A DNA stretch of 64,000 nucleotides from Mizuhopecten yessoensis. Taxonomy: Eukaryota. The notes under the pieces are model-generated. The model saw nothing but the letters and a program-made list of their open reading frames with translations, was not told where the DNA came from and made no database searches. The position numbers and the translations under genes were made by a program. Of this stretch, positions 4,128-64,000 are shown in pieces; positions within the stretch are counted from its first letter, which is position 1, and the number at the start of each line of letters is the position of its first letter. The DNA lies in assembly GCF_002113885.1 (NCBI RefSeq), contig NW_018407955.1, positions 833,649 through 897,648 of the forward strand, in the 5' to 3' direction.

Positions 4128-6063
4128 TGATGTATTGTTAGCTGTATGGTTTGACCCTGATGTATTGTTAGCTGTATGATTTGACCCTGATGTATTGTTA
4201 GCTGAATGATCTGACCCTGATGTATTGTTAGCTGTATGATCTGACCCTGATGTATTGTTAGCTGTATGATTTGACCCTGATGTATTGTTAGCTGAATGAT
4301 CTGACCCTGATGTATTGTTAGCTGTATGATTTGACCCTGATGTATTGTTAGCTGTATGATTTGACCCTGATGTATTGTTAGCTGTATGATTTGACCCTGA
4401 TGTATTGTTAGCTGTATGATTTGACCCTGATGTATTGTTAGCTGTATGATTTGACCCTGATGTATTGTTAGCTGTATGATTTGACCCTGATGTATTGTTA
4501 GCTGTATGATTTGACCCTGATGTATTGTTAGCTGTATGATTTGACCCTGATGTATTGTTAGCTGTATGATTTGACCCTGATGTATTGTTAGCTGTATGAT
4601 CTGACCCTGATGTATTGTTAGCTGTATGATTTGACCCTGATGTATTGTTAGCTGTATGATTTGACCCTGATGTATTGTTAGCTGTATGATTTGACCCTGA
4701 TGTATTGTTAGCTGTATGATTTGACCCTGATGTATTGTTAGCTGTATGATTTGACCCTGATGTATTGTTAGCTGTATGATTTGACCCTGATGTATTGTTA
4801 GCTGTATGATTTGACCCTGATGTATTGTTAGCTGTATGATTTGACCCTGATGTATTGTTAGCTGTATGATTTGACCCTGATGTATTGTTAGCTGTATGAT
4901 TTGACCCTGATGTATTGTTAGCTGTATGATTTGACCCTGATGTATTGTTAGCTGTATGATTTGACCCTGATGTATTGTTAGCTGTATGATTTGACCCTGA
5001 TGTATTGTTAGCTGTATGATTTGACCCTGATGTATTGTTAGCTGTATGATTTGACCCTGATGTATTGTTAGCTGTATGATTTGACCCTGATGTATTGTTA
5101 GCTGTATGATTTGACCCTGATGTATTGTTAGCTGTATGATCTGACCCTGATGTATTGTTAGCTGTATGATTTGACCCTGATGTATTGTTAGCTGTATGAT
5201 TTGACCCTGATGTATTGTTAGCTGTATGATCTGACCCTGATGTATTGTTAGCTGTATGATTTGACCCTGATGTATTGTTAGCTGTATGATTTGACCCTGA
5301 TGTATTGTTAGCTGTATGATCTGACCCTGATGTATTGTTAGCTGTATGATCTGACCCTGATGTATTGTTAGCTGTATGATTTGACCCTGATGTATTGTTA
5401 GCTGTATGATTTGACCCTGATGTATTGTTAGCTGTATGATTTGACCCTGATGTATTGTTAGCTGTATGATTTGACCCTGATGTATTGTTAGCTGTATGAT
5501 TTGACCCTGATGTATTGTTAGCTGTATGATCTGACCCTGATGTATTGTTAGCTGTATGATCTGACCCTGATGTATTGTTAGCTGTATGATCTGACCCTGA
5601 TGTATTGTTAGCTGTATGATTTGACCCTGATGTATTGTTAGCTGTATGATCTGACCCTGATGTGTTGTTAGCTGTATGATCTGACCCTGATGTATTGTTA
5701 GCTGTATGATCTGACCTTGATGTATTGTAAGCTGTATGATTTGACCCTGATGTATTGTTAGCTGTATGATCTGACCCTGATGTGTTGTTAGCTGTATGAT
5801 CTGACCCTGATGTGTTGTTAGCTGTATGATCTGACCTTGATGTATTGTAAGCTGTATGATTTGACCCTGATGTGTTGTTGTTAGCTGTATGATCTGACCC
5901 TGATGTGTTGTTAGCTGTATGATCTGACCTTGATGTATTGTAAGCTGTATGATTTGACCCTGATGTGTTGTTAGCTGTATCTTTGACCCTGATAAATTGT
6001 TAGCTGTATGATTTGACCCTGATGTATTGTTAGCTGTATTATTTGACCCTGATGTGTTGTTCA
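4128..6063. repeat. Minisatellite with a 30-bp unit GCTGTATGATTTGACCCTGATGTATTGTTA, about 64 copies. T/C and A/G variants occur at two positions, and the distal end is degenerate.
   Basis: Direct reading of the sequence. It produces the artefactual 690-aa minus-strand ORF 4025-6097 ((TIHQGQIIQL)n). Confidence 0.97.
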
Positions 6064-6779
6064 TTTTCTGATATGCCGTGATGCTGATATAAGGCACGTG
6101 TGAGGAAGATTAAGAGACTCTGGAGAGACAATCATGTATGCTCCATTATCTGTCTACTTAGTCATGGCCAATCCTGCACTGTAAGTCCCCGGTAATCAAT
6201 ACAATATCTACTTTGTCTCGGCTGTATGCTGCAAAATGTCCACACTTTGTTTGAACATTATAATGTAAACCGCAAACAACTCTCACCACATAACAACACG
6301 TTATATATATACATATATACATCTTTGTCACAGAAAACAGGTCAAAGGTCAGATACATAAAATTGAAAAAACATAAAAATACATGTAAAAATAGCAGCGG
6401 ATGAGATGCCATTATCATTATCATGCTCTTAGAGATTTTTTGAAGACCAACTGTTTTTTGAATCACTGTTTAGCTCACTTAATGTTCTCTACATTATTGC
6501 GTGCAGTTGTTTTCGGTGTTTGGTAGTTTTTTATTCACTGCCAACGTAGAAATTTTATAGACGGCTTCAATCACTGTCGAGTGCAGTCAAACTAAATGGT
6601 TTTATACACTGTAACACTACAAGGTGAAATTACACCATGATGTTCCATTCATGCAAGCCTGTATCGTCCTGGCACAGGACTACTTCATCAGATTCCTGAC
6701 AGAACTTTTAACAGATGGTTCTTTAAATAATCTTGAACCCTGTTTGTACTGTCAGATCTACTCATTCAGCCCTCTAATG

Positions 6780-8780: not shown

Positions 8781-10379
8781 AGAATAGTGTCATTCTTGCC
8801 AACTTTAGTACCTGCAAGATAACCTTTTCCCCTACCTCTAATCCAGTATGGTAGTAAAAATTGACACTGACATATTTTTAATCAACAATAAATAATATAC
8901 ATTTTCTAGATATTGTACAAATTAATAAAGCAGTAAAAAGTATGGTATACTCCAGATATACTAAAAACTAGAGCAGTCTGCTAAAGCTTAAATAACAAAA
9001 AGCTTCTTTTCCATAAGCCGATACAGTGTTTTCGGTAGATATTCCACCATTGATCAAAAAGACAATTTAATTATGTTGTATAATAAAGTATTAGATATGT
9101 CACATTTAAGAGTTATCAGCTTACAAGAAAAAGAACATTTGAAAATCAAATTATCTTTTTTATGCAATTTCTTGTCAGAGTTTAGAAAAATGTAGCTCCT
9201 TTGTTCTGCACAAACTTCCATGCAAGATACAAGAGGTGTCTGTTTTTAATAAGAAAAGATTGGAGGATGATATATATTATTTATCTAGCTATACAGTAAA
9301 ATACTACTGCATAATTCTAGTACTTTAAAAAAAATCTAAATGTTTAATGATGTATGTGACATTGAGGTAAACTGCCTCACTTTGGAATATTTGTTGGGGA
9401 GGGAGAGGGGTGGGCGGTAGATGATGGGTGGTGCTACCCTGGGGTGGGGGATCAGTGACCTAAGCTGTTAGGGGAGACTTCCTTAGGTTTCCTGTTACAT
9501 TACCAGGCATATCATCTCCCCAGGTGTCCACATCTGTTTAATAAGGCTCTCCGGTAAAGCTGGTCACTGCATGCTGGCTGAGATGTATGGGCAGTATTGA
9601 GGAAGCTTTGTATTTACAGTCACTAATAAGTTTACACAGCATTATGGAGAATTACAGACCACTGCTTTAGACAGCAAACCTATCAAACGGTATTTAAAAC
9701 TAGCCATAAACAAATTGGATAGTACATGTTGGAATGACTCTGCTGAAATCTATTTCTTTTAGTAACCATGGTTATTAAAAGTTTTGGCCAAATTTCTACA
9801 AGTAATGAAATTAGAAGCTGAATGTTCTTTAATTTTATTCAACAACATCTATGAGTATAGCCTATAGCTAGCTGCTACATAGGTATATGGGGACCAGTGA
9901 TGTAGACCCTCATGTAAGATACATATATACTAACACTGAACCACAGCCTGTGGAGTGCTCCAAATAGTTGGTACATATATACCTACAAATGAATTCTCTC
10001 TTTTTCTGATTTTCCACAGCACTCATCTTGAGAAGACTGGTCAGATCCAGGCCTGCAACTACCCCAGGCTCGTGTGTATATTGCCTGGATTCTTGCAGTT
10101 GATGAGTGGATGATAGGAACCGCCTGTGTGTGAGACTGTTTGTGCTCTAACAGGGAGTTTACAAGGATTACCAAAGATAACATGGATTACAGGAGGATAA
10201 TTACCTGACGTTCAGAGGTCGATCAGAACGTACATCCTGAGTAATAACATTTTGCTTGCAGGTGAGTTTTTGAAGTAGTTATTGATGAGCTTACGAAACA
10301 GTGACTGCACAGTTTAAATGTTTACAACTATTGTAATTCTAATAAAAAAATCAATATTTGATCTACGTTAACAGTTAGC

Positions 10380-10575
10380 AAAACAACAGATGTCAGATAC
10401 TGACTTTGAGTTACCTTTCTATCCCAGTGAATTTTAAAGTCCCCTCCCCCGGCCATGTATTCCCTATCTGAGGTCCGAAACAACAAATGTCGGGTACTGA
10501 CTTTCAGTTACCCGCCTATCCCAGTGAATTTTAAAGTCCCCTCCCCAGATCATGAATCCCCTCTCCCAGGTCCAC
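10380..10575. repeat. Two tandem copies of about 95 bp (CTGACTTTNAGTTACC...TATCCCAGTGAATTTTAAAGTCCCCTCCCC). C-rich.
   Basis: Read directly. Confidence 0.8.
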
Positions 10576-11280
10576 ACAGTATATTTTCACCCTCCTATAA
10601 AAATTTCGCTACCCAACCTATTTCCCATTTACTATATGTACTGTTTAACCCCCCCCCCCCCTTCCACATAACCTCTGGACCATGTATTCAGCACAAATTG
10701 GTCATCTACAGCACAAGCTTGTCTGACAGAATTTTGGAGGGCAAATCTGGGCTGTGAATGAATGATTTTTTAGAACAGCGCTGTACACATCATTGTACAG
10801 GTGTGTGTAGATGGCTGAGGCCTTGGGCTGATCCCATCTCATAGCCATCCTTGTAAAATTGAACCTGTTGATGCCTATATACATATTCACAGCTATTTTA
10901 ATGCCAGTGAAAGTTGAAACCCTTCACGAGCCTGATGACTTAATAACATTGGTAGATACAGCAGCTGGTCTGCTGATAATTAATGATGTTCAGTGAAGGA
11001 TTATATTTACTACAGGGTTGCTGAACCTCTGTGGCCTTCAGTTACCTATCAACGGAGTGCCAATCTCCCCTCGACAAACCCTCTATCTTCCTCAATATTA
11101 TACCATGCAGCAATCCCCTCGACCTTTGCCCCTCCATCTTCCTCAATAACTTACAATAGGTTATTATAAGGATCCCAAACCCCTCATTTCTTAGCAGAGG
11201 ATTGAGACCAGCAGAGACCGGCAACATTGCTATGGAGCTATAGATATTCATTAAATGGGAGAAGATTGGGGATGTTTGGG

Positions 11281-11328
11281 TAGGTTGGGGGGGGGGGGGG
11301 TTGGGGGTTTGGGGTTGGGGGGGGGGTA
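11281..11328. repeat. Interrupted poly-G tract (G10-12 runs separated by TT/TTT), a potential G-quadruplex former. Other homopolymers are C13 at 10644-10656, C13 at 19513-19525, and C/G runs at 41480-41535.
   Basis: Read directly. Confidence 0.9.
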
Positions 11329-11989
11329 TTAATGCCTACAGATTCAAGATAATTAGAATCTGTGTACCTAGTGTGAGGTACCTATGACCTTGTCAGCATC
11401 TGATAATTAGGTCAAGGTCATAGCAGTGACCAGTAACTATATATATATAATGGTCTTAACCCTGAGGCAAACCAGCTATCCATAGAATGATTGCAAGACC
11501 CTGTTCAGAGGTCCAAATACAAATTACTTCTCAGCTCTAGGAATCAAAGCGTGTCTATCAGCTCGCGGGAGTTGAAATTCTTTCATAAGCGTTTAATGTA
11601 AACATGTGCTGAACAGTGTCTTTACCGTGTTCTGCCTGATTTTCTGAGTTAATGCCCGTTTTATGTCTCTCTATTACTGAGTTATTGCACAAACGCCCAG
11701 GATTTATCATTTGAAGATGATTTGATTTCATCTGAGGTTGTAAAGGGATTATGGTTTTGGCATGCAATCAGTGGGAAGTAAAAGCCATGAAATGTTTATT
11801 TATAAATGTCAGTTACAAGTTCATAACCATGGTTTTGTAACATTTTATGACCTTAGTGTAGAAAGGTCATACAAACCACTCACTCCTGTCAGCTAGTGAT
11901 GGAAATAGAAGCTCAAGGTTATGAATATATACAGGATATGTATGTATTGTTTTGGAAACTATAGTTTCATGATTTACAGGTTAACTCAA

Positions 11990-12125
11990 TCATTTTATAA
12001 TGAACTATTCCATCCTTTGAATTGGGAGAGTTTAATTGTGTCTTCAGTGCATGGTGAATAATTTGAACTCTTCCATTTTAAAGGTTGGAAGAGTTCATTA
12101 TAAAATTTCAGGGGTGAATGAGTTA
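11990..12125. mobile_element. Palindromic MITE, about 1.5 copies: a partial unit followed by a full unit ending AATTTCAGGGGTGAATGAGTTAAGG.
   Basis: GAACTATTCCATCCTTTGAATTGGGAGAGTTTAATTGTGTCTTCAGTGCATGGTGAATAATTTGAACTCTTCCATTTTAAAGGTTGGAAGAGTTCATTATAAAATTTCAGGGGTGAATGAGTTAAGG. It overlaps ORFs 11995-12273 and 12036-12236, which are artefacts. Confidence 0.7.
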
Positions 12126-12194
12126 AGGATACCTGTCCCAGGTATTGCACTGAGGTTGTTCCTATATACAGTAACCTACCATAAATTTTGTTTT

Positions 12195-12380
12195 GGATAT
12201 AACTGCAGCACAGGTGGGTCAGAACACTTCCATTGACCAGGTAGCTCTGTTGGTTAAAGCGATAGTATAACAATCTAAGGTTCTGGGTTCAAATCCTGTT
12301 TAACCTCACATACTGTTCACATTCATAACACTGTTGTTGATGATATTTTGTTTATTTCATCCATATTATGTTTTTAAAGA
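12195..12380 (+). mobile_element. tRNA-like SINE portion of the same family, with no TIR (GGATATAACTGCAGC…GACCAGGTAGCTCTGTTGGTTAAAGCG…GGTTCAAATCC… and the tail TTTAACCTCACATACTGTTCAC…TTTATTTCATCC). Related tRNA-like fragments are at 12470-12545 and 12655-12740.
   Basis: A-box/B-box-like motifs. Same head and tail as 28245-28420 and 53100-53290. Confidence 0.6.
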
Positions 12381-12763
12381 CATCTCCCCATGAATGGTTC
12401 TCTTTTCTGAAATGATTAATCAAAGCTATAGTCATGCCAGAAAAATAAGTTTCGATCACAGTTACAGTGTTTGGCAGTGGTACGGGGATCCTTAAGTCTT
12501 AGTTCAGAGGTTTAGGGTTTGAATCCTGGTCTGGCTATTGAGATTTCCGAGTCCTTCTATATTTCGTGCCTGGATATTTATATGAATGGAATATGGTATT
12601 CTTTATGTCTTTAGTATTGACTTCGTTCAAGAAGGGAAAAATGAAGTGGAACTGGAATAATGGTCGGGTCATCATTGACCGGGTGACTAAGCTGGTAACT
12701 AGTAGATCATCCATCTAGAGTTCAGAGGTAACTGGTTCAGTGTGACAATCTTCCACTCTTTTT

Positions 12764-12855: not shown

Positions 12856-13213
12856 TTTCACTCCTTAATATATTAGTCATACCTGTCCATACCACTTTTG
12901 ACGCAATCAGGGCTTATAGATTGGCGATTCCTGTCCTTCCGTCTGTCTGTCTGTCTGTCTGTCCGTCTGTCTATCTGTCCGTCTGTCTGCGCTAAGGTTA
13001 AGAAGAATGGTTTAGCTCAGTTTCAAAGTTAACTATTATCCCACAACAACTAAACTTGCATGGCTTATGTATCTAACTAAGCTATTCATATGCGATGCTT
13101 CGGATGCAGCTTCTGACCTACATTTTCCGCTTCAGTGACCAGGTTATTAAGAAGTTTGGTTGAGGTCAGGCCCCATCTGCACTATGGTTAAGAAGATTGG
13201 TTTAGGTCACTAA
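12856..13213. repeat. Left copy of a ~358-bp direct repeat (TCACTCCTTAATATATTAG...GGTTTAGGTCACTAACCAG), about 96% identical to 16976-17317. Together the two copies flank the 45-bp satellite.
   Basis: Long blocks of sequence identical to 16976-17317 (e.g. CCACTTTTGACGCAATCAGGGCTTATAGATTGGCGATTCCTGTCCTTCCGTC... and GGCCCCATCTGCACTATGGTTAAGAAGATTGGTTTAGGTCACTAACCAG). Confidence 0.85.
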
Positions 13214-16200
13214 CCAGTTGTATTTGGTGTCCTTTCTACTGTCAACCATGACTTTGTCTTAGTTGTATATGGTATCCTATCTACTGTCAACCATAACTTT
13301 GTCTTAGTTGTATATGGTATCCTATCTATTGTCAACCATGACTTTGTCTTAGTTGTATATGGTGTCCTATCTACTGTCAACCATGACTTTGTCTGAGTTG
13401 TATATGGTATCCTATCTACTGTCAACCATGACTTTGTCTTAGTTGTATATGGTGTCCTATCTATTGTCAACCATAACTTTGTCTGAGTTGTATTTGGTAT
13501 CATATCTATTGTCAACGATGACTTTGTCTGAGTTGTATATGGTATCCTATCTACTGTCAACCATGACTTTGTCTTAGTTGTATTTGGTGTCCTCCATAAC
13601 TTTGTCTTAGTTGTATATGGTTTCCTATCTACTGTCAACCATAACTTTGTCTGAGTTGTATTTGGTGTCCTATCTATTGTCAACCATAACTTTGTCTTAG
13701 TTGTATATGGTTTCCTATCTACTGTCAACCATGACTTTGTCTGAGTTGTATTTGGTATCATATCTATTGTCAACCATGACTTTGTCTGAGTTGTATATGG
13801 TATCCTATCTACTGTCAACCATGACTTTGTCTTAGTTGTATTTGGTGTCCTATCTACTGTCAACCATGACTTTGTCTTAGTTGTATTTGGTGTCCTATCT
13901 ACTGTCAACCATGACTTTGTCTTAGTTGTATTTGGTGTCCTATCTACTGTCAACCATGACTTTGTCTTAGTTGTATTTGGTGTCCTATCTACTGTCAACC
14001 ATGACTTTGTCTTAGTTGTATTTGGTGTCCTATCTACTGTCAACCATGACTTTGTCTTAGTTGTATTTGGTGTCCTATCTACTGTCAACCATGACTTTGT
14101 CTTAGTTGTATTTGGTGTCCTATCTACTGTCAACCATGACTTTGTCTTAGTTGTATTTGGTGTCCTATCTACTGTCAACCATGACTTTGTCTTAGTTGTA
14201 TTTGGTGTCCTATCTACTGTCAACCATGACTTTGTCTTAGTTGTATTTGGTGTCCTATCTACTGTCAACCATGACTTTGTCTTAGTTGTATTTGGTGTCC
14301 TATCTACTGTCAACCATGACTTTGTCTTAGTTGTATTTGGTGTCCTATCTACTGTCAACCATGACTTTGTCTTAGTTGTATTTGGTGTCCTATCTACTGT
14401 CAACCATGACTTTGTCTTAGTTGTATTTGGTGTCCTATCTACTGTCAACCATGACTTTGTCTTAGTTGTATTTGGTGTCCTATCTACTGTCAACCATGAC
14501 TTTGTCTTAGTTGTATTTGGTGTCCTATCTACTGTCAACCATGACTTTGTCTTAGTTGTATTTGGTGTCCTATCTACTGTCAACCATGACTTTGTCTTAG
14601 TTGTATTTGGTGTCCTATCTACTGTCAACCATGACTTTGTCTTAGTTGTATTTGGTGTCCTATCTACTGTCAACCATGACTTTGTCTTAGTTGTATTTGG
14701 TGTCCTATCTACTGTCAACCATGACTTTGTCTTAGTTGTATTTGGTGTCCTATCTACTGTCAACCATGACTTTGTCTTAGTTGTATTTGGTGTCCTATCT
14801 ACTGTCAACCATGACTTTGTCTTAGTTGTATTTGGTGTCCTATCTACTGTCAACCATGACTTTGTCTTAGTTGTATTTGGTGTCCTATCTACTGTCAACC
14901 ATGACTTTGTCTTAGTTGTATTTGGTGTCCTATCTACTGTCAACCATGACTTTGTCTTAGTTGTATTTGGTGTCCTATCTACTGTCAACCATGACTTTGT
15001 CTTAGTTGTATTTGGTGTCCTATCTACTGTCAACCATGACTTTGTCTTAGTTGTATTTGGTGTCCTATCTACTGTCAACCATGACTTTGTCTTAGTTGTA
15101 TTTGGTGTCCTATCTACTGTCAACCATGACTTTGTCTTAGTTGTATTTGGTGTCCTATCTACTGTCAACCATGACTTTGTCTTAGTTGTATTTGGTGTCC
15201 TATCTACTGTCAACCATGACTTTGTCTTAGTTGTATTTGGTGTCCTATCTACTGTCAACCATGACTTTGTCTTAGTTGTATTTGGTGTCCTATCTACTGT
15301 CAACCATGACTTTGTCTTAGTTGTATTTGGTGTCCTATCTACTGTCAACCATGACTTTGTCTTAGTTGTATTTGGTGTCCTATCTACTGTCAACCATGAC
15401 TTTGTCTTAGTTGTATTTGGTGTCCTATCTACTGTCAACCATGACTTTGTCTTAGTTGTATTTGGTGTCCTATCTACTGTCAACCATGACTTTGTCTTAG
15501 TTGTATTTGGTGTCCTATCTACTGTCAACCATGACTTTGTCTTAGTTGTATTTGGTGTCCTATCTACTGTCAACCATGACTTTGTCTTAGTTGTATTTGG
15601 TGTCCTATCTACTGTCAACCATGACTTTGTCTTAGTTGTATTTGGTGTCCTATCTACTGTCAACCATGACTTTGTCTTAGTTGTATTTGGTGTCCTATCT
15701 ACTGTCAACCATGACTTTGTCTTAGTTGTATTTGGTGTCCTATCTACTGTCAACCATGACTTTGTCTTAGTTGTATTTGGTGTCCTATCTACTGTCAACC
15801 ATGACTTTGTCTTAGTTGTATTTGGTGTCCTATCTACTGTCAACCATGACTTTGTCTTAGTTGTATTTGGTGTCCTATCTACTGTCAACCATGACTTTGT
15901 CTTAGTTGTATTTGGTGTCCTATCTACTGTCAACCATGACTTTGTCTTAGTTGTATTTGGTGTCCTATCTACTGTCAACCATGACTTTGTCTGAGTTGTA
16001 TATGGTATCCTATCTACTGTCAACCATATCTTTGTATTAGTTGTATTTGGTGTCCTATCTACTGTCAACCATGACTTTGTCTGCGTTGTATTTGGTGTCC
16101 TATCTACTATCTACCATAACTTGTTCTTAGTTGTATTTGGTGTCCTATATACTGTCAACCATAACTTTGTCTTAGTCGTATATGGTATCCTATCTACTGT

Positions 16201-16350
16201 CAACCAAGACTTTGTCTGAGTTGTATTTGGAGTCCTATCTACTGTCAACCATAACTTTTTCTTAGTTGTATTTGGTGTCCTATCTACTGTCTACCATAAC
16301 TTGTTCTTAGTTGTATTTGGTGTCCTATCCACCCTCAACCATAACTTTGA
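13214..16350. repeat. Minisatellite with a 45-bp unit CAACCATGACTTTGTCTTAGTTGTATTTGGTGTCCTATCTACTGT, about 69 copies. The central roughly 50 copies are near-identical and the flanks are more diverged.
   Basis: Read directly. 45 bp equals 15 codons, which yields the artefactual 952-aa ORF 13210-16068 ((WLTVDRTPNTTKTKS)n). Confidence 0.97.
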
Positions 16351-30821: not shown

Positions 30822-32158
30822 TGTTCAGGGTCACAAGGGTCAGGTATTTGGTTGTGTAAGGTTCACAAGGGTCAGGTATTTGGTTGTGTAGGGTTCACAA
30901 GGGTCAGACATTTGGTTTTGTAGGGTTCACAAGTGTCAGACATTTGGTTGTGTAGGCTTCCCAAGGTTAGATATTTGGCCCGGTAGTTTGACAGGGTCAG
31001 GGATTTAGTTGTGAAGAGTTCAAATAGGTTAGATATTTGGCTATGTAGGTTTACAGGGTCAGACATTTGGTTGTGTAAGGTCCACAAGGGTCAGGTATTT
31101 GGTTGTGTAGGGTTCACAAGGTTAGATATTTGGCTCTGTAGGTTTACAGGGTCAGACATTTGGTTGTGAAGGGTGCATATAGGTTAGATATTTGGCTCTG
31201 TAGGTACACAAGGGTCAGATATTTGATTGTGCAGGGTTCACAAGGGTCAGGTATTTGCTTGTGTAGGGTTCACAAGGGTTAGCTATTTGGTAGTGAAGGG
31301 TATGCAAGGTCAGATATTTGGTAGTGTAGGGTTCACATGGGTCAGACATTTGGTTGTGTAGAGTTCACAAGGGTCAGACATTTGGTTGTGTAGGGTTCAC
31401 AAGGGTCAGACATTTGGTTGTGTAAGGTTCACAGGGTTAGATATTTGGCTCTGTAGGTTGACAGGGTCAGATATTTAGTTGTGAAGAGTTCAAATAGGTT
31501 AGATATTTGGTTTTGTAGGGTTCACAAGGGTCAGACATTTGGTTGTATAGGGTTCACAAGGGTTAGACATTTGGTTGTGTAGGGTTCACATGGGTCAGAC
31601 ATTTGGTTGTGTAAGGTTCACAAGGTTAGATATTTGGCTCTGTAGGTTGACAGAGTCAGATATTTGGTTGTGAAGAGTTCAAATAGGTTAGATATTTGGC
31701 TCTGTAGGGTTCACAAGGGTAAGATATTTGCTTGTGTAGGGTTCACAAGGGTTAGATATTTGGTTGCGAAGGGTTCACAAGGGTCAGATTTTTGGCTCTG
31801 TAGGGTTGACAAGGGTAAGATATTGGGTTGTGTAGGGTTCATAGGGGTCAGATATTTGCTTGTGTAGGGTTCTCAATGGTAAGATATTTGCTTGCATAGG
31901 ATTCAGAAGGGTTAGATATTGGGGTTTAAGGGTTCATAAGAGTCAGCTATTGGGTTGTGCTAAGGGTTCATAAGGGTCAGATATTTGCTTGTGAAGGGTT
32001 CACAAGAGTCAGATATTTGGTTGTGTAGGGTTCACAAGGGTAAAATATTGGGTTGTATAGGGTTAATAAGAGTCAGCTATTGGGTTGTGCTAAGGGTTCA
32101 TAAGGGTCAGATATTTGCTTGTGTAGGGTCTACAAGAGTCAGCCATTCGGTTGTGAAA
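30822..32158. repeat. Minisatellite with a 32-33 bp unit GGGTTCACAAGGGTCAGACATTTGGTTGTGTA, about 40 copies with many point variants.
   Basis: Read directly. Explains ORFs 30872-31087, 31664-31867 and 31985-32179. Confidence 0.95.
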
Positions 32159-33514: not shown

Positions 33515-35822
33515 ATGTGCTATAGTGCTAACTTTCCTCTACTATTTAATACTATAGTGCTAACTTTCCTCTACTATTTAATACTATAGAGCTAACCTTC
33601 CTCTACTATTTAATACTATAGAGCTAAACTTCCTCTACTATTTAATATTGTAAAGCTTACCTTCCTCTACTATTTGATACTATAGAGCTAAACTTCCTCT
33701 ACTATTTAATACCATAAAGCTAACCTTCCTCTACTATTTCATACTATAGAGCTAAACTTCCTCTACTATTTAGTACTGTAGAGCTAACCTTCCTCTTCTA
33801 TTTAATACTATAGAGCTAACCTTCCCCTACTATTTAGTACTGTAGAGCTAACCTTCCTTTACTATTTAATACTATAGGGCTAACTTTCCTCTACTATTTA
33901 AGGTTGTAGAGCTAACCTTCCTCTACTATTTTAATAATATGGTGCTAACCTCCCTCCACTATTTAGTACTGTAGAGCTAACCTTCCTTTACTATTTAATA
34001 CTGTAAAGCTTACATTCCTCTACTATTTAATACTATAAAGTTACCTTCCTCTACTATTTAATACTGTAAAGCTTACCTTCCTCTACTATTTGATACTGTA
34101 GCGCTAACATTCCTAAAGAGTACTGTAGAACTTCCCTTCCTCTACTATTTAATATCATACAGCTAACCTTCTGCTACTATTTAATACTGTAGGGCTAACC
34201 TTCATTTACTATTAAATACTATAGAGCTAACCTTCCTCTTCTATTTAATACTAAAGAGCTAACCTTCCTCTTCTATTTTAATACTATGGTGTTAACCTTC
34301 CTCTACTATTTAGTACTGTAGAGCAAACCTCCCTCTACTATTTAATATTATATATCTTATATGCCTCTTTTATTGCAATACCGTAGAGCTAACTTTCCTC
34401 TACTATTTAATACTATAGTGCTAACTTTCCTCTACTATTTAATACTATAGTGCTAACTTTCCTCTACTATTTAATACTATAGAGCTAACCTTCCTCTACT
34501 ATTTAATACTGTAAAGCTTCCCTTCCTTTACTATTTAATACTGTAAAGCTTACATTCCTCTACTATTTAATACTGTAAAGCTTACCTTCCTCTACTATTT
34601 GATACTGTAGCGCTAACATTCCTAAAGAGTACTGTAGAACTTCCCTTCCTCTACTATTTAATATCATACAGCTAACCTTCTGCTACTATTTAATACTGTA
34701 GGGCTAACCTTCATTTACTATTAAATACTATAGAGCTAACCTTCCTCTTCTATTTTAATACTATGGTGTTAACCTTCCTCTACTATTTAGTACTGTAGAG
34801 CTAACATTCCTCTACTATTTAGTACTGTAGAGCAAACCTCCCTCTACTATTTAATATTATATATCTTATATGCCTCTTTTATTTCAATACCGTAGAGCTA
34901 ACTTTCCTCTACTATTTAATACTATAGTGCTAACTTTCCTCTACTATTTAATACTATAGAGCTAACCTTCCTCTACTACTTAATACCATACAGCTAACTT
35001 TCCTCTACTTTTTAATACCATAGCGCTAACCTTCCTCTACTACTTAATACCATAGAGCTAACCTTCCTCTACTATTTAGTACTGTAGAGCTAACCTCCCT
35101 CTACTATTTAATATTATATATCTTATATGCCTCTTTTATTGCAATACCGTAGAGCTAACTTTCCTCTACTATTTAATACTATAGAGCTAACCTTCCTCTG
35201 GTATTTTAATACTATGGTGCTAACCTTCCTCTACTATTTAGTACTGTAGAGCAAACCTTCCTCTACTATTTAGTACTGTAGAGCAAACCTTCCTCTACTA
35301 TTTAGTACTGTAGAGCTCCCCTCCCTCTACTATGCTATAGTGCTAACTTTCCTCTACTATTTAATACTATAGAGCTAACCTTCCTCTACTACTTAATACC
35401 ATAGAGCTAACCTTCCTCTACTATTTAGTACTGTAGAGCTAACATTCCTCTACTATTTAGTACTGTAGAGCAAACCTTCCTCTACTATTTAGTACTGTAG
35501 AGCTCCCCTCCCTCTACTATTTATTACTGTAGAGCTTACCTTCCTCTACTATTTTAATACTATGGTGCTAACCTCCCTCCACTATTCAGTATTGTAGAGC
35601 TAACCTCCCTCCACTATTCAGTATTGTAGAGCTAACCATCCTCCACTATTCAGTATTGTAGAGCTAACCATCCTCCACTATTCAGTATTGTAGAGCTAAC
35701 CTTCTTCCACTATTCACTATTGTAGAGCTAACCTTCCTTCACTATTCAGTATTGTAGAGCTAACCATCCTCCACTATTCAGTATTGTAGAGCTAACCATC
35801 CTCCTCTACTATCTAATACTAT
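33515..35822. repeat. Minisatellite with a 33-34 bp unit CTACTATTTAATACTATAGAGCTAACCTTCCT, about 68 copies. A higher-order periodicity is marked by ATATTATATATCTTATATGCCTCTTTTATTGCAATACCGTAGAGC recurring at about 34335, 34850 and 35105.
   Basis: Read directly. Blocks 34380-34860 and 34900-35160 repeat the same order of unit variants. Confidence 0.95.
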
Positions 35823-37830: not shown

Positions 37831-38003
37831 ATGAAGAAGTGATCTTAATTTAATCCATATGTCTAACATGAAATAGTGTCTTTTATAATTGAAGTCTTGT
37901 GTCTCTATGAAGTCATGTGTAATTGAAGCCAAGTGTTTAATGTTATGTTTTGTATATTGCAGATCGGGACAAAGATGACAGCCATCAACATGTAGACCAC
38001 CAG

Positions 38004-40406
38004 ATGGATGAGTATAGTAATGACAATCGCCATGGAAACAAAAGGAAGCCAGCCATCCACAAATCTTCAAAGTCTGGAGCGCACTCTCAGTCGAGTGGTG
38101 TCCATGGTAATAATAGTCGACGGTCATCTGAGCCACAGTTGGCCACCAGAGGGAGTGACATGTCTAGAGAAAGAAAGGATAAGGTCAAACCTTCGAACCA
38201 TTGTATACAAGATGGTCAAAATGGTGCAGCAGGCGAGGGAAGGGACAGAAACTCTGTCAGACAAAAGCTTGACTCAAGTGATGGATCCGACGATCAAGGC
38301 ATCGGCAACAGGAGAGATTCCGGCAGGAGTAACCGTGCAGAAAGATCTAAAAAGTATGCCACCTGGGACAAAAACATGCAGAAACGACGAGCCAAAGTGT
38401 TGCAGCTGCAACAGGAAGGGCAGACAAGTGCTGATGATACCTTCATCAACAAAAAGGGGAGGCAACTCCCTGACAACTATTACAAACTGTCACGGAGTAT
38501 CTCAACAGACCTGGCAACTTTGCGCAACAAGACTCAGATGCTGCAATCAGCTAGTGTTTACAACACAAGCGGGGATATGTCAGCGCCATATACCCAAATC
38601 TCAAAATCTTCTTCCCAGAGTCAAAAGACTTCAGTCAACAATCACTGGCAGGCATTTGACCAATCAAAACACAGTAACTTGTACAACTCGGCAGGGACAC
38701 AGAATAACTACAGTGAGAACATTCCTAAACAGCGGACCATGTCTCTCGGTGACGTACGACGGTCAGCTTTTTACCGCATCAACTCAAACACCCCTTCCAT
38801 TCCCTCCTCACCCTCCGATCACAAGGACACATACATTGACATAGACAGCCTCATAGCCAATGACATCCACGCCCATCAAGCGGAAGAGAATGAAAGGGCC
38901 TTCCCGACACTGGAAGGGTACAGACGTCACGGTTTGACACACAGCTTTCCCAGTGCACCCTACACAACACTAAAACATTTAAGTGAGAAAAGTATATGTT
39001 CCTCTTTGCTAGGATTAATGATGTTCCTTATAGCCGGCTTTGTGCTATTTCTACCTCTGGCAGCCATCTTTCTAATTCTATGCCCCTTGTGTTTCTTTGT
39101 GAAGAAAATATTTTCATGCTGTTGTTGCTATGGAAAAAAGTGTCAATGTGGAACTCTCCTATCTCCAAAGGAGAGAGCATGGGCAGAAAATTTGGAAACC
39201 AGCACCGTTGTGTACCAATGTGTTGTTATAGTGGAGTATGGTCTAACGACCTACAAAATACGGGAGTTGGTGAGAAATCGACTAATAAAGGCAACAGATA
39301 AAAATGGCAATAGATTATATCCAAAATTTACAAAGAAAATTGTGAATACTTTTTCTGGCCCATCTTGGATTCAGGATGAGGCTTTCCTAATAAACAACCA
39401 CGTTTTTAATATGCCTTCCTCCATAGAAAATATGGAGGACCTCCAGGAATATATATCAGAATCTAGCTCGAAACCTCTCTCTATGCACCATCCTCTGTGG
39501 GAAATCCAGGTTCTGACCGACTTTGCCGATCAGCGAGACACGGTTGTATTGTTGCGCATTCATCCATGTATCGCTGACGGAATCTCACTCGTACAACTTC
39601 TGTATAAGGCTATTGTGGATATGGAGTCCATCACCATCGCTATGCCAAAGTTCTCTAGTCGTCGGCGTTTCTGTAATGCCGTCCAGGCATTCTTCAGTGG
39701 CCCGTTGGTTTTTTTGAAACAGTACGTGTTCAAAAAGCAAGATTTTAATATGCTGCATGGCCAACACATCCACGCCACGGGCAAACAGGTGATAGCTTGG
39801 TCAGAGCCGTACAGCCTTGAGCAAGCCACACGTCTTTCTCAGGTGACGCGTTCCACTCTAAATGACATCTTCCTGTCTGTCACAGCAGGTTGTCTACGTA
39901 ATTATCTGCAGACGAATGGAATTCCGAATCCGTATGACATGCAGGCCCTGGTACCTGTACACTACCATTCGGGACCCTCACCCCTTCATCTGCAAAACAA
40001 CGACTGTCTGTTTATCCCCGTCTCTATTCCTTCAAACACAGAAGGTGCCATCCCTCGACTCTGGCGGGTCAAACACATCATGGACAAGATTGGTAGTCTG
40101 GCTTTTTTCTCGGTCACACAAGGGGCCCATATGTTGTCTTCGACGATCTTGCCCCAACGGTGGTTGTATTCCATGTGGCGATCCCTGTATAGTAAGTGTA
40201 CATTTGTCATTTCTGACCTTCCAGGGCCCGAGACAACCTTGAAAATAGCCACTAAAAAAATCAAGTCTGTAATATGCTGGATGCCACCAATCCACCAGGT
40301 TGCTGTGGCGATCTCCTTCTTTACCTATGCTGACCAGGTGAGGATGTCTGTGATGGCTGACCGGACAGTCTTGCCCAACCCTGAGATGTTGACCAGGGAT
40401 TTCATT
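38004..40406 (+). CDS. Large exon of a WS/DGAT-family acyltransferase gene (wax ester synthase / acyl-CoA:diacylglycerol acyltransferase-like, PF03007 plus PF06974/DUF1298-type core). N-terminal part is low-complexity, followed by one TM helix and a Cys cluster. The 5' boundary is uncertain: the first in-frame ATG is at 38004, and a possible splice acceptor (ttgtatattgcag) lies at 37962/37963.
   Basis: 829-codon open frame. Residues align to Acinetobacter AtfA hallmarks: PLW...IHPCIADG (the HHxxxDG position, 39561-39581), TLNDIFLSVTAGCLRNYL (AtfA TINDVVLAVCSGALRAYL), ISDLPGP (AtfA ISNVPGP, 40209-40229) and AISFFTYADQVRMSVMADRTVLP (AtfA ITMTSYLDKLEVGLIACRNALP). The exon ends exactly at a phase-0 GTAAGT donor (40407-40412), three codons before the ORF stop. 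Confidence 0.8.
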
Positions 40407-40976
40407 GCCATCGTAAGTATTTTGATTGTTTTGAAGTAAGTACTGCCCTTAGTGATACGATTTGGAAAATATTTTTTTCAATAATGATGCACGGTCATTG
40501 TACTTTTAATATGGGATTCTACTTAATTATTTTTACTTCATGTATCTTCACAAACCTATGTAATCTAATGATAAATGCATGCTTCTGTAATGTTAGTCAG
40601 ATAGCCTTGTAATCACAGATGTAATCACATAGCTCAACCAAAAATCCATTTTGGTTTGAACTCATCAATTGAGGGGACGACCCATTGATCAGTGAAAAAG
40701 TAACTGACAGGGGTCACTGATGAAATCAGTAAATTGAAACAAGCAGGACATGATATTTTGGCATGATTTCCGACTGTGGTCAAGGTCATGTATTAATGAC
40801 TTTTGACATTTCATAGCATCTTGTATGCGAGTTAGCGGTTGGAGGTCATTGGGGTATAATTGTATAGTCTTGTGACCAACACCCCTCCCCCACTCCTGCA
40901 TTTCTATTTATTTAGGGTTCTTGTCCCAGTTTTTCGAAGCCCAACTAGCTAAATCAGTCATAAACAAAAAATGTTT

Positions 40977-41837: not shown

Positions 41838-41954
41838 ATGGATGACCTGTCCAGTTTACTGGGTAATCGAAGGATTCCCGGAGAACAACTCTCCAAAAAA
41901 ATGGAAGTGCACCAACTGGACTGTGAAATTCATGCTGAGCCCACTGTGGAACAG
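41838..41954 (+). CDS. Putative exon 2 of the WS/DGAT-like gene (39 codons, MDDLSSLLGNRRIPGEQLSKKMEVHQLDCEIHAEPTVEQ). Phase 0 at both ends.
   Basis: The pyrimidine-rich acceptor ttgttgtctctag ends at 41837 and is followed by the donor cag|gtaagtag at 41955. The frame is open and its phase matches the exon 1 donor. By the AtfA alignment it supplies the about 15 residues still missing from the C-terminus of the acyltransferase domain. The overlapping minus-strand ORF 41856-42083 is judged spurious. Confidence 0.55.
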
Positions 41955-42884: not shown

Positions 42885-43510
42885 GACTAAATTTGGTCTG
42901 GAGTATCCTTAGGTCAAGGGGACTCAATTTTGTATGAACGTGGGTGTTGCCCCCCTGGGAGCAGAGGGGTGGGGCCCAATAGGGGAAATAGAAGTAAAAC
43001 CTTTTAAATCCTTCTTCTACTGTAGGGGTTAAGAGATTTTATTCTAATTTAGTCTGGAGCATCCTTGGGCCAAGAGGACTCAATTTGGTATAAACAGTGG
43101 GTGTGCCCCCCTGGGAGCAGAGGGGTAGGGCCCAATAAGGGAAGTGGAGGTAAAACCTTTAAAATCCTTCTTCTTCTGTAGGGATTAAGAGATTTTATCC
43201 TAATTTAGTCTGGAGCATCCTTGGGCCAAAGGGACTCAATTTTATATAGACGGTGGATGTGGCCCCCCTTGGAGCATTGGGTGGGGCCCAATAGGGGAAA
43301 CAGAGGTAAAACCTTTAAAATCCTTCTTCTACTGTAGGGATTAAGAGATGTTATCCTAATTTAGTCTGGAGCATCCCTGTGCCAAGGGGACTCAATTTTG
43401 TATAAACAGTGGGTTTAACCCGTCTGGGAGCAGAGAGGCAGGCCCAATAAAGGATATAGAGGAATAGCTTTAATATCCTTCTTCTTTCGTTGGGATGAAG
43501 GTATTTTGAC
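42885..43510. repeat. Tandem repeat with a unit of about 150 bp, about 4 copies (…GGTCTGGAGCATCCTTGGGCCAAGGGGACTCAATTTTGTATAAACAGTGGGTGTGCCCCCCTGGGAGCAGAGGGGTGGGGCCCAATAGGGGAAATAGAGGTAAAACCTTTAAAATCCTTCTTCTACTGTAGGGATTAAGAGATTTTATCCTAATTTAGTCT). It lies inside the putative intron between exons 2 and 3.
   Basis: Read directly. The unit is homologous to the internal part of the AGCTCACCTG-terminated dispersed elements at 42786, 54375 and 36950. Confidence 0.9.
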
Positions 43511-44189
43511 CAAATTTAAACAATAGCATCCTATGGAGAAGGGAAATCAGTTTTTTATAATAATAGTATATAAAATTAATATAATAGTATTTTAGCATAA
43601 CTAGAAGGTGACTTGTTCCTATATACAGTAACCTCCCTTATGGAAATCAAACAAAGTTTAATTGATCTACAAATCGTGGTAATACTTGCGTAAGATTTTT
43701 TCAGATGAATTCATGGAACTAAGTGTGTGCTTAATATACCAATGTCCCTCTAGAGTAAAACTAGAAGGTGACTGTTATCCTATATACAATGAAAATCTGC
43801 CACACTACTCCCCCTTTTTAAATGTGTTCGCCCTTGAACACCATGACAACCCATGTTCTAACTCCCTGTCACCACTGGGAGGGCCACCGAGACACCATTA
43901 GTGACAGAGAAATGTACTTCCACCAGGGGATTGAACCAGTGACCCTCAGCTTCCTAGTCCGCCACTCTGTCAATTGAGCTAAGGGGGAAAATTCCCTCTA
44001 GCACAAAGCTAAAAGGTGACTGTAATCCTATGTACAATATGAAAATCTGCCACACACTGTTTGCTGGTACTAAACCCAGTGGCCTTTATATTCCACGATA
44101 GTGCAAGTGCATCTTGTGATTAGGTTTCAAACTAGGGGGAAACTGGACTCTTGTTAACAAAAACTATGTGAATATGTTTTTCAGCAATT

Positions 44190-45052: not shown

Positions 45053-45259
45053 ATCCAGATAAAGATGACCATCATACAGCAAGAAATACAGGAACTCAAG
45101 ATGCAGCTTGATCTCGATGGACGTCACACCAGCTCCGAGACGAAGCTCCGACGCAAGATAGAGACTTTGAAGGAACAGTTTCGGGAGATGATGGTTGAGA
45201 TGCGCCAGAGAAAGGCTGCTGAGGAGGAGAATGCCATGATTCTTACGGACGAGGATCCT
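45053..45259 (+). CDS. Putative exon 3 (69 codons): a charged, heptad-like coiled-coil segment (IQIKMTIIQQEIQELKMQLDLDGRHTSSETKLRRKIETLKEQFREMMVEMRQRKAAEEENAMILTDEDP).
   Basis: Acceptor tttcgcacgtcag|ATC and donor CCT|gtaatc, phase 0 on both sides. It coincides with six-frame ORF 45065-45289. Whether it belongs to the same transcript as exon 1 is unverified. Confidence 0.45.
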
Positions 45260-45284
45260 GTAATCATCTTATTATTGATAACTT

Positions 45285-46530
45285 TATAATCTGGAATTTT
45301 ATTAGTGACACCTTATTAATTGGACATCTCATAAGCAACAGCTGTATAATTTGATAACTCATTGATGATACCTGTATAATCTGACATCTCTACAATGGCA
45401 CCTGTATAATCTATCAATCTGATAACTCATTTATGATACCTGTGTAATCTGACATCTCTACAATGGCACCTGTATAATCTATCATCTTTTTAGTGACACC
45501 TGTTTAATACAACATATCAGTAATGACACCTGTATTATATGACATCTCATTAGTGACACCTGCATAATCTGACATCTCATTCATGATGCCTGTGTATTCT
45601 GACATCTCATTAGTGACACCTGTATAATATGACATCTCATTAGTGACACCTGAATAATATGACATCTCATTAGTGACACCTGCATAATCTGAAATTCCAT
45701 AGTTTCACTTGTATAATCTGACCTCTCATTATTGACACCTGTATAATCTGAAATTCTATAGTGACACCTGTTTAATCTGACATTTCATAAGTAACACCTG
45801 TATTCTCTGAATTCTCAGTAGTGACACCTGTTTTATGAAGTATCTCATTAATCAACCCTGTATAATCTGACAACTCATAAGTGACAACTCTTAAGTACAG
45901 CAACTCATTACTGATACCTGTATAATCTGACATCACATTGGTGACACCTGTATGATCTGATACCTGATAAGTGACACCTGTTAAGTCTTACATTTCATAT
46001 ATAACAACTGTTTATTCTGGCATTTCATAAATAACACCAGTATAATCTGAAATCTCATTAGTGACACCTGTATAATATTACATCTGATTTGTGAGACCTT
46101 TTCAATCTGACATTTTATTTGTGGCACCTGTATAATATGACTTCTCATTTGTGACACCTGTATGATATGACATTTCATTAGTGACATCTGTATAATATAA
46201 CATCTCATTTATGAGACCTTTTCAATCTGACATCTTATTTGTGATATCTGTATAATATGACATTTGATAAGTGACACCTGTTTAATTTGACATTGCATTT
46301 GTGGCACCTATTTAATCTGACATATCATTAGTGACACCTGTATAATCTGACATTTCATTAGTAACACCTAAATAATCTGACATATCATTAGTGACACCTG
46401 TATAATCTGACATTTCATTAGTAACACCTGTTTAATCTGACATCTCATTAGTGACACCTGTATTATTTGACAATAAATTAGAGACACTTGAATAATCCAA
46501 CATTTTATTAGCAAAACCTGTGTAATCTGT
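45285..46530. repeat. Minisatellite with a 30-bp unit GACACCTGTATAATCTGACATCTCATTAGT, about 40 diverged copies.
   Basis: Read directly. Explains minus-strand ORFs 45981-46208 and 46368-46709. Confidence 0.95.
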
Positions 46531-47329: not shown

Positions 47330-47500
47330 GAAATTGAGGATGATGAGGACAATGACCTTCGACGACCTTTCCGGCGCCGAACACTGTCTGTCAGCTCCCG
47401 AATGTCCCGAATGTCTACCGTCTCCACTTCCTCAACTGCTCGTCCTTTAGCCTCACCATCGGTCGTTATGGACATGTACGATCCCGATACTTGGTCACAG
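47330..47500 (+). CDS. Putative exon 4 (57 codons): acidic stretch followed by an Arg/Ser-rich segment (EIEDDEDNDLRRPFRRRTLSVSSRMSRMSTVSTSSTARPLASPSVVMDMYDPDTWSQ).
   Basis: Acceptor tttcaatgtgacag|GAA and donor CAG|gtttgt, phase 0. The minus-strand ORF 47290-47475 over the same bases is less plausible. Confidence 0.45.
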
Positions 47501-48470: not shown

Positions 48471-48620
48471 TTTCAGTCCTCCAGAATGGATGGTATCAGC
48501 ATAGGTATGGCCGGAGGTAGGCAGACGTTGCCACGACGAACACAACATAGGAACGAGGAATTTGAAATTCTTGAATATGCTCATTCACCTTCGATGGAGA
48601 GACGAATAAGGACAGCGTAG
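48471..48620 (+). CDS. Putative terminal exon (49 codons plus TAG stop): SSRMDGISIGMAGGRQTLPRRTQHRNEEFEILEYAHSPSMERRIRTA*
   Basis: Acceptor tattatataatttcag|TCC in phase 0 and an in-frame TAG at 48618-48620. No clear AATAAA signal was seen just downstream, so more 3' exons remain possible. Confidence 0.4.
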   Translation, partial: FQSSRMDGISIGMAGGRQTLPRRTQHRNEEFEILEYAHSPSMERRIRTA

Positions 48621-62149: not shown

Positions 62150-64000
62150 TACTACCATAATATAACAATTGCAGTCTAAATACCAAGTACCCCACAATTG
62201 CAGCCTATATACTAACTGTTCCCTACAATCACAGCCTACTCCACAATCGCAGCCTACATCCTAAGTACCCCACAATCACAGACTACTCCACAATCGCAGC
62301 CTACATCCTAAGTACCCCACAATCACAGACTACTCCACAATCGCAGCCTACATCCTAAGTACCCCACAATCACAGACTACTCCACAATCGCAGCCTACAT
62401 CCTAAGTACCCCACAATCACAGCCTACATACTAAGTACCCCACAATCACAGCCTACTTACAAAGTTCCCCACAATCACAGCCTACATCTTTGATCCCCAC
62501 AATCGCAGCCTACATACTAACTGTTCCCCACAATTGCAGCGTACATACTAAGTTCCCCACGATCACAGCCTACATACAAAGAACCCCAAAATCACAGCCT
62601 ACTTACAAAGTACCCCACAAGCACAGCCTACTTACAAAGTTCCCCAAAATCACAGCCTATATACAAAGTACCCCAAAATCACAGCCTACATCTTTGATCC
62701 CCACAATCGCAGCCTACATACTAAGTTCCCAACAATCACAGCCTACATACTAAGCTCCCAACAATCACAGCCTACATACGACCCCACAATCGCAGCCTAC
62801 ATACTAACTGTTCCCCACAATTGAAGCGTACATACTAAGTTCCCCACAATCACAGCCTACATACTAAGTACCCCACAATCACAGCCTGCTTACTAAGTTC
62901 CCCACAATCGCAGCCTACATACTAAGTTCCCCACGATCACAGGGTACATACTAAGTACCCCACAATCGCAGGCTACATACTAAGTTCCCCACGATCACAG
63001 AGTACATACTAAGTACCCCACAATCACAGCCTGCTTACTAAGTTCCCCACAATCGCAGCCTCCATACTAAGTTCCCCACGATCACAGCCTACATACAAAG
63101 TACCCTACAATCCCACCCTACATACTAAGTTCCCCACAATTGCAGTCTACATACTAAGTACCAAACAATCACAGCCTACATACTAAGTACCCCACAATCA
63201 CAGCCTACTCCACAATCGCAGCCTACATACTAAGTACCCCACAATCGCAGCCTACATACTAAGTTCCCCACGATCACAGCGTACATACTAAGTACCCCAC
63301 AATCACAGCCTACTTACAAAGTTCCCCACAATCACAGCCTACATCTTTGATCCCCACGATCACAGCCTACATACAAAGTACCCTACAATCACATCCTACA
63401 TACTAAGTTCCCCACAATCACAGCCTACATACTAAGTTCCCAACGATCACAGCCTACGTACTAAGCTCCCCAAGATAACAGAGTACATACTAAGTACCCC
63501 ACAATCACAGCCTACAGACTAAGTACCCCACAATCACAGCCTACTTACTAAGTTCCCCACAATCACAGCCTACATACTAAGCTCCCCAAGAAAACAGCGT
63601 ACATACTAAGTACCCCACAATCACAGCCTACATACTAAGTTCCCCACAATCACAGCCTACATACTAAGTACCCAACTATCACAGCCTACATACTAAGTAC
63701 CCCACAATCACAGCCTACATACTAAGTTCCCCACGATCACAGCCTACATACTAACTGTTCCCCACAATTGCAGCCTACATACTAAGTTCCCAACGATCAC
63801 AGCCTACATACTAAGCTCCCCAAGATAACAGAGTACATACTAAGTACCCCACAATCACAGCCTACTTACAAAGTTCCCCACAATCACAGCCTACATACTA
63901 AGTTCCCCACAATCACAGCCTACATACTAAGTACCCAACAATCACAGCCTACATACTAAGTACCCCACAATCACAGCCTACATACTAAGTTCCCCACAAT
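62150..64000. repeat. Satellite with a 29-bp unit CCCCACAATCACAGCCTACATACTAAGTT, more than 60 copies, running off the 3' edge of the window.
   Basis: Read directly. Explains ORF 62490-62753. Confidence 0.97.

Follow-up and report, generated by a model that had tools for sequence, protein, structure and literature searches.

The window analyzed here is a stretch of 64,000 nucleotides from the scallop Mizuhopecten yessoensis (contig NW_018407955.1, positions 833,649 to 897,648), AT-rich (GC ∼0.36) and with few genes. It carries LOC110457585, a five-exon gene whose 1015-residue product (isoform X1; P0036) is annotated simply as "uncharacterized protein". By sequence and fold, this protein contains a wax ester synthase/diacylglycerol acyltransferase (WS/DGAT) domain, and at the site by which the enzyme is defined it departs from the family: window positions 39561-39581 read CAT CCA TGT ATC GCT GAC GGA, which encodes HPCIADG (codons 520 to 526) where the enzymes have HHxxxDG. 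A proline therefore stands at the position of the second, catalytic histidine. The loss of this histidine is shared by a large group of animal proteins, and the product of LOC110457585 is, in our judgment, probably an ancient repurposed pseudo-acyltransferase.

Domain identity and register of the motif

Pfam detects both halves of the WS/DGAT domain, WS_DGAT_cat (PF03007, E 1.5e-11, 45.0 bits against a cut-off of 23.6, residues 464 to 554 of the open frame) and WS_DGAT_C (PF06974, E 6.8e-19, 68.8 bits against a cut-off of 20.7), and the full-length protein gives the same result. A phmmer search of the PDB sequences yields only two significant matches, and these are the solved WS/DGATs 6chj (Marinobacter) and 7nxg (Acinetobacter AtfA/AbWSD1). 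Structural modeling is in agreement. The AlphaFold2 (AF2) model of residues 366 to 803, built on a 57-sequence alignment, has a mean pLDDT of 89.7 and a pTM of 0.90, and Foldseek ranks the same two structures at the top of the PDB (6chj, E 7e-24, TM 0.65-0.71; 7nxg, E 9e-21). Ranked below them are condensation, starter-C, Cy and dehydrating-C domains of nonribosomal peptide synthetases (NRPS) and CON domains of polyketide synthases (PKS). As modeled, the domain has the well-formed fold of the CAT/condensation superfamily, with the WS/DGATs as its closest relatives.

The register of the motif is fixed from both sides. The segment lrihpciadgislvqll aligns without gaps to kvHHslvDGvsamrm of 6chj and to kiHHamvDGvagmrli of 7nxg, so that the proline falls on the second histidine; with R-x-H anchoring it on one side and D-G on the other, the alignment cannot be shifted to another register. 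No other histidine aligns at the catalytic position in these PDB alignments. The motif lies in an 829-codon open frame (37950-40439) whose true start is the ATG at 38004, which makes the histidine codon 520. When spliced, the five exons of the window translate exactly to the RefSeq-derived P0036, all boundaries are canonical AG/GT, and the domain query translated from the window is 100% identical to P0036 in the profile search. A first-pass annotation, made from the sequence of the window, had reported the replacement of the second histidine in a cleanly read frame, with the first His, the Asp and the Gly retained; the alignments and the reconstructed transcript bear out each of these statements.

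Integrity of the gene

A proline at a catalytic position might reflect a sequencing or assembly error, or the gene might be a decaying pseudogene. Nothing was found in support of either idea, and comparison with other scallops leaves both with practically no probability. In the Argopecten irradians ortholog (L001) the motif is CAT CCT TGT ATA GCT GAT GGA, the same peptide with three synonymous differences, one of which is in the proline codon itself (CCT vs CCA), and the Pecten maximus motif is identical at the protein level. The proline codon is thus independently confirmed in Argopecten, and no ortholog of the scallop protein with HH was found, which answers the concern of the first-pass annotation that HH in the closest homologs could expose a sequencing error. 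Exon 1 was aligned codon by codon between Mizuhopecten and Argopecten and the ratio of nonsynonymous to synonymous substitution rates (dN/dS) was calculated by the Nei-Gojobori method. It is 0.028 over the anchor plus domain, an approximate value since dS (1.41) is near saturation, and 0.19 over the 327 codons of the disordered N-terminus. The synonymous Argopecten codon, the low dN/dS and the exact splicing at canonical boundaries into the RefSeq-derived protein rule out a sequencing error and a pseudogene; LOC110457585 is an intact gene under strong purifying selection.

Distribution of the histidine loss

The histidine is missing well beyond the scallops. None of the first 22 homologs examined (molluscs, annelids, a nemertean and a brachiopod) has His at position 2 of the motif; most read HP and some HQ. 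A profile search of 1.84 billion cluster representatives returned 1131 proteins at E<=1e-30, and 196 relatives were aligned to a single hidden Markov model (hmmalign), from which the motif columns were then read. The first two residues are HH in 78 of these proteins, HP in 53, HQ in 34, HM in 5, HL, SS and SH in 4 each and HA in 2, with single cases of HS, HR, HE, SP and DP and a few others. A neighbor-joining (NJ) tree was built from the 172 proteins with 300 or more aligned columns; it groups all 88 proteins without the His in a single clade, which has 90 members. A repeat NJ tree, from 95 non-redundant sequences and without the seven motif columns, recovers this clade as monophyletic, and the bootstrap values are 51/60 for its bilaterian part and 41/60 with the two cnidarian members. 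Both trees are built by NJ with a simple distance, so that the support is moderate and not decisive.

Taxonomically, the clade is broad. It includes molluscs and other spiralians (bivalves, gastropods, cephalopods, the annelid Owenia, the nemertean Tubulanus, the brachiopod Lingula and a bdelloid rotifer), non-insect ecdysozoans (a priapulid, a tardigrade, the mites Tropilaelaps and Blomia, a millipede, a springtail, and decapod, amphipod and barnacle crustaceans) and deuterostomes (a sea urchin and a crinoid), with Nematostella (HRSLADV) and the coral Desmophyllum (HESIADV) on the basal branch. Its many insect members are palaeopteran, polyneopteran and paraneopteran (Ischnura, Periplaneta, Cryptotermes, Timema, Nilaparvata, Bemisia, Polyplax and others). 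Holometabolous insects, vertebrates and nematodes do not appear among the matches listed, in searches that were not designed to prove absence, the third of which reached its ceiling of 8000 candidates, possibly owing to low-complexity words in the long queries, and gave insects only; for the insects, this hints at a possible loss in Holometabola, which would account for the missing Drosophila literature. As judged from the alignment and the trees, the histidine was lost early: the loss predates the divergence of protostomes and deuterostomes and may predate that of cnidarians and bilaterians.

This distribution bears directly on the idea of a recent, scallop- or bivalve-specific inactivation of an otherwise active animal WS/DGAT. 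The exact string HPCIADG is indeed confined to pectinids, but the loss of the histidine itself is common to other molluscs, annelids, arthropods, echinoderms and others within one clade. Tabulation of the motif across that clade rules out a scallop or bivalve peculiarity, and a recent event is accordingly given next to no weight.

The residue that replaces the histidine is not fixed. P, Q, M, L, S, A, R and E are all seen at the second position in the clade, and P, M, L and Q occur within the gastropods alone. This variability argues against proline as a specific new catalytic or structural requirement, and that idea was rejected. The first-pass annotation had left open whether HPxxxDG is conserved in the lineage; conservation applies to the loss of the histidine, far more widely than expected, and does not extend to the proline, as the residue is variable and the group is not an 'HP' family. 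In mytilid-type orthologs (P0001, P0002, P0038 from Mytilus edulis, and P0039) the motif is SSCIMDG, with both histidines gone; these proteins are still 50-54% identical to the scallop protein over the domain.

Changes at other conserved residues

To place the motif in the context of the whole domain, 64 non-redundant clade members were compared with 79 non-redundant HH-type relatives, in the numbering of the domain query, which puts the His-Pro pair at 155-156. The HH-type proteins have His at position 156 in 79/79 cases; in the clade the residue is P (0.48), Q (0.31) or one of M, L, S, H and others. Several other residues that are conserved in the HH-type are relaxed in the clade: N301 falls from 1.00 to 0.47, D256 from 0.99 to 0.75, K332 from 1.00 to 0.73, N373 of the SNxPGP motif from 0.96 to 0.56, and R290 from 0.94 to 0.62. 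The scallop protein retains N301 and N255-D256 but carries H290, G332 and D373. The first-pass statement of good conservation elsewhere in the fold signature is therefore correct in part: it does not hold for the three substituted scallop positions (R290H, K332G, N373D), nor for the HH-type invariants that are relaxed across the clade.

New invariants are found as well. R245 (0.91), R251 (0.97), D174 (0.92) and N217 (0.86) are nearly fixed in the clade and not in the HH-type. The same is true of the TEGAIPRLW stretch, in which E315-G316-x-x-P319-R320-L321-W322 are conserved at 0.92-0.98 in the clade (E315 0.95, G316 0.92, P319 0.98, W322 0.98); in the HH group, E315 is present at 0.24, position 316 is not G, 319 is not P and 322 is not W. 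Read from residue conservation, the loss of the catalytic residue, the relaxation of other invariants and the gain of new ones form the pattern expected of a domain that has come under a new constraint and has left the ancestral chemistry.

Architecture of the full-length protein

The features of the gene and its product are collected in Table 1. In both scallop genera, ∼800 codons lie in one unbroken 2.4-kb exon (exon 1 in the window; 10001-12385 in Argopecten L001). Four small phase-0 exons, spread across 8 kb, encode the short C-terminal tail. An ATG-started open reading frame (ORF) of 278 codons runs over part of exon 1 in a different frame (38008-38844, plus strand); the skewed composition of the sequence that codes for the disordered N-terminus is its probable cause.

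Table 1. Features of LOC110457585 in the window (all positions are window coordinates; residue numbers refer to the 1015-residue protein)
Feature	Position	Strand	Residues	Remarks
CDS exon 1	38004..40412	+	1-803	Disordered Ser/Arg/Asn-rich N-terminus, hydrophobic anchor, Cys cluster and entire WS/DGAT-like domain; donor ATC|gtaagt
Hydrophobic segment ICSSLLGLMMFLIAGFVLFLPLAAIFLILCPLCFFV	38994..39101	+	331-366	Predicted membrane anchor; 36 residues; sole Kyte-Doolittle peak of the protein
Juxtamembrane Cys cluster CCCCYGKKCQC	39117..39149	+	372-382	Clade consensus CCCC..C.C, conserved in most of the clade
WS/DGAT-fold domain	39150..40412	+	∼383-803	Pfam PF03007 and PF06974, AF2, Foldseek
PLW motif	39492..39500	+		Kept; Trp invariant in the clade and in HH-type relatives
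HPCIADG, replacing HHxxxDG	39561..39581	+	520-526	Pro at the catalytic-His position
ND motif (TLNDI)	39861..39866	+		Kept in scallop, relaxed in the clade (N 0.97 to 0.81, D 0.99 to 0.75)
NTEGAIPRLW	40035..40064	+		Clade-specific and nearly invariant there; not conserved in HH-type WS/DGATs
DLPGP	40215..40229	+		Counterpart of SN[VI]PGP; Asn 96% conserved in HH-type relatives, Asp here
CDS exon 2	41838..41954	+	804-842	Conserved LLxNRRIPGE motif at exon start
CDS exon 3	45053..45259	+	843-911	Predicted coiled-coil helix pair (AF2)
CDS exon 4	47330..47500	+	912-968	Acidic stretch and conserved putative basophilic site RPFRRRTLSVSS; RRRTLS at 47372-47389
CDS exon 5	48477..48620	+	969-1015	Includes the stop codon

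The N-terminal ∼320 residues are Ser/Arg/Asn-rich and disordered, with an AF2 pLDDT of ∼30. The hydrophobic segment that follows and the two prolines in it are conserved in homologs from cnidarians to echinoderms. Its 36 hydrophobic residues and two prolines had suggested a possible monotopic hairpin, as in a lipid-droplet-type anchor; AF2 models the region as one continuous helix (331-374). Clusters of cysteines beside a membrane span are typical S-palmitoylation sites, located on the cytosolic face, and CCCCYGKKCQC is probably palmitoylated.

C-terminal to the domain, AF2 predicts two coiled-coil-like helices (840-863 and 869-905, pLDDT in the high 80s), which may mediate oligomerization. 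An acidic run and then the conserved site RPFRRRTLSxSS follow in the C-terminal part, and RRRxLS is also present in the A5 consensus. RRRxxS and RRxS are consensus sites of basophilic kinases, which makes RRRTLS a putative basophilic phosphorylation site. Beyond the WS/DGAT fold, the anchor, the juxtamembrane Cys cluster, the coiled coil and the RRRxLS site are additions of the clade. The protein around the motif is accordingly no plain WS/DGAT but a membrane-anchored, multi-domain one of 1015 residues.

Tandem repeats in the window

Two very regular minisatellites lie at 4127-6061 (30 bp, 64 copies, 96% matching) and 13216-16349 (45 bp, 70 copies, 96% matching). Both periods (30 and 45 bp) are multiples of 3, and the arrays give rise to the two longest other ORFs, on the minus strand at 4025-6097 and 13210-16068; as candidate neighboring genes these ORFs were rejected as minisatellite artefacts, with only spurious zero-stretch Pfam matches. 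Further tandem arrays are found at 45265-46529, 42890-43560, 30827-32155, 33523-35820 and 62382-64000. Within the gene, a 156-bp array lies inside intron 2 and a 30-bp array in intron 3 begins 6 bases past the exon 3 donor site, while arrays of 32 bp and 29/58/87 bp in the flanks account for spikes of GC skew in the composition profile.

Relation to characterized systems

The characterized enzymes closest to the scallop protein, AtfA/AbWSD1 (7nxg), Ma-WS/DGAT (6chj) and Arabidopsis WSD1, share with it the two Pfam domains, the fold, the PLW and ND motifs, the xxPGP motif (degenerate in the scallop protein, DLPGP) and the active-site D-G. Unlike these bacterial and plant WS/DGATs, to which its identity is ∼17-18%, the scallop protein lacks the second histidine and has other invariants relaxed. 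In architecture, too, it differs from them: its 1015 residues include a disordered N-terminus, a predicted membrane anchor, a Cys cluster, a coiled coil and a basophilic phosphosite motif. In WS/DGATs, the second His of HHxxxDG is described as invariant and indispensable, whereas the first may be Ser or Asp, as in the active TrWSD4 and TrWSD5 (PMC5513132). Mutagenesis of the second His of AtfA is attributed to Stoveken et al. 2009, as cited in PMC10549239.

Animals also encode short HH-type proteins, which are the nearest outgroup or sister of the clade in the tree (Nematostella P0091/XP_001632004, Hydractinia P0230, Owenia P0093 and Capitella P0111). With ∼480-530 residues, these proteins retain HH, and the C-terminal extension is not known to occur in them. 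Likewise uncharacterized, they are labeled 'putative diacylglycerol O-acyltransferase MT1809' and are candidates for the true wax-ester/triacylglycerol (TAG) synthases of cnidarians and annelids. Because Owenia and Nematostella carry both the HH-type and the non-His type, the scallop gene is regarded as a paralog of the canonical animal WS/DGAT.

Replacement of the second histidine has precedents in the superfamily. In Rhodococcus jostii RHA1 it is Pro in Atf14, Lys in Atf4 and Ser in Atf10 (PMC2667194). Atf14 is therefore a bacterial precedent for HPxxxDG, but the three are sporadic paralogs among 14 atf genes rather than an old conserved clade, and they lack the membrane-anchor/coiled-coil architecture. 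A second group of precedents comes from megasynthases: in the X-domain of glycopeptide NRPSs and the CON domain of LovB, the second His is replaced by Arg, and the domain does not condense and serves other roles (PMC6260248). The X-domain (4tx2) and the LovB/MokA CON domain (6ad3, among the Foldseek matches) thus resemble the scallop domain in sharing the superfamily fold and in being kept for another role after replacement of the histidine, and Nematostella P0121 has the same His-Arg pair. Unlike the clade proteins, they are embedded in bacterial or fungal megasynthases. The X-domain recruits P450s, a role with no obvious counterpart here.

Functional interpretation

Features expected of a pseudoenzyme are present in this family: homology to an active enzyme family is clear, an essential catalytic residue has been lost, and long-term purifying selection and persistence across many animal phyla followed the loss. 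The suggestion of the first-pass annotation that the protein is a catalytically divergent or inactive paralog is supported to this extent, as every close relative lacks the histidine and the loss maps to one old animal clade. The favored interpretation, held with moderate confidence, is that the product of LOC110457585 is a repurposed pseudo-acyltransferase. The family arose as a paralog of the canonical short HH-type animal WS/DGATs and forms an animal-only clade. In it, the V-shaped, two-lobe fold is kept and, with it, probably a binding channel of hydrophobic or acyl-CoA type, while the canonical general-base chemistry would be gone. The long hydrophobic segment and the probably palmitoylated Cys cluster would tether the domain to a membrane, the predicted coiled coil and the conserved kinase-type RRRxLS site follow it, and the new invariant residues would mark a new functional surface or pocket. 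Taken together, the anchor, the Cys cluster, the coiled coil and the RRRxLS site suggest a regulated module for lipid binding, sensing or recruiting rather than a wax-ester/TAG synthase.

The alternative to be weighed against a pseudo-acyltransferase is that the protein is still an enzyme, either an acyltransferase or a related group-transfer enzyme or lyase, whose active site has been rewired. In place of the general base it might use the first His, the Asp of the motif or E315, R320, R245 and R251, or catalysis might be substrate-assisted. The fold is functionally plastic, with dehydratases, Cy and starter-C domains among the Foldseek matches, and purifying selection on the gene is strong. 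Other observations weigh directly against a loss of activity. Three residues of the ancestral motif persist in the clade, the first His (0.97), the Asp (0.97) and the Gly (0.88); the new charged motifs are nearly invariant there, and the newly fixed charged residues E315, R320, R245, R251 and D174 could form a new active site. Cy domains (DxxxxD motif; 5t3e is among the Foldseek matches) have the same fold and condense without the second His, using residues elsewhere in the tunnel. In some C domains of NRPSs, too, the second His is dispensable (PMC11546977). Finally, 2 of the 90 clade members do have His at position 2, the millipede Chamberlinius hualienensis (P0076, HHCFSDA) and the barnacle Pollicipes pollicipes (P0159, HHVISDG). 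The neighbors of these two proteins have Gln, from which His is one third-position change away (CAR to CAY), so that their histidines may be reversions rather than retentions.

A rewired enzyme is nonetheless the clearly less probable of the two. The mytilids have dispensed with both histidines. The residues tolerated at position 2 (P, Q, M, L, S, A, R, E) have no chemistry in common, which argues against any defined role for this position, including a new catalytic role for the scallop proline. Several HH-type invariants are relaxed jointly, as would follow if the ancestral site had been lost and not just one residue exchanged. Even the retention of the first His, Asp and Gly can be explained without catalysis, as the motif Asp of the LovB CON domain is engaged in a structural salt bridge to an Arg of the floor loop (PMC6260248).

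Annotation and significance

The literature treats WS/DGATs as lipid-storage enzymes of bacteria, plants and protists. Full-text searches found no papers on animal WS/DGAT-like proteins or on the His-less clade, and no characterized ortholog in a model organism was found, the named hits being all 'uncharacterized', 'hypothetical' or automatically labeled 'DGAT/tgs'. The database labels 'diacylglycerol O-acyltransferase', 'tgs1' and 'tgs3' on these animal proteins are probably functionally wrong, which bears on reconstructions of lipid metabolism in aquaculture molluscs, crustaceans and pest insects.

More tentatively, the clade may represent a previously unrecognized family of many invertebrate phyla, dating back more than 550 million years, whose molecular function is truly novel. 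This could be a sensor or recruiter of lipid or acyl-CoA regulated by phosphorylation and palmitoylation, or an enzyme rebuilt around TEGAIPRLW, R245 and R251 with a reaction that is not known for the fold in animals. What is new here is a branch of the WS/DGATs that is old, conserved, probably non-catalytic and distinct in architecture; the proline replacement as such had been noted once before, in R. jostii Atf14 (PMC2667194). Pseudoenzymes are common and the principle is unsurprising, so that the interest lies in how old, widespread and strongly conserved this unstudied animal family is. Animals thus carry two kinds of WS/DGAT, the canonical HH-type and a much larger, membrane-anchored paralog whose catalytic histidine disappeared very early. 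The latter has been under strong selection in most invertebrate phyla since, which makes it a tractable new pseudoenzyme or neofunctionalized family.

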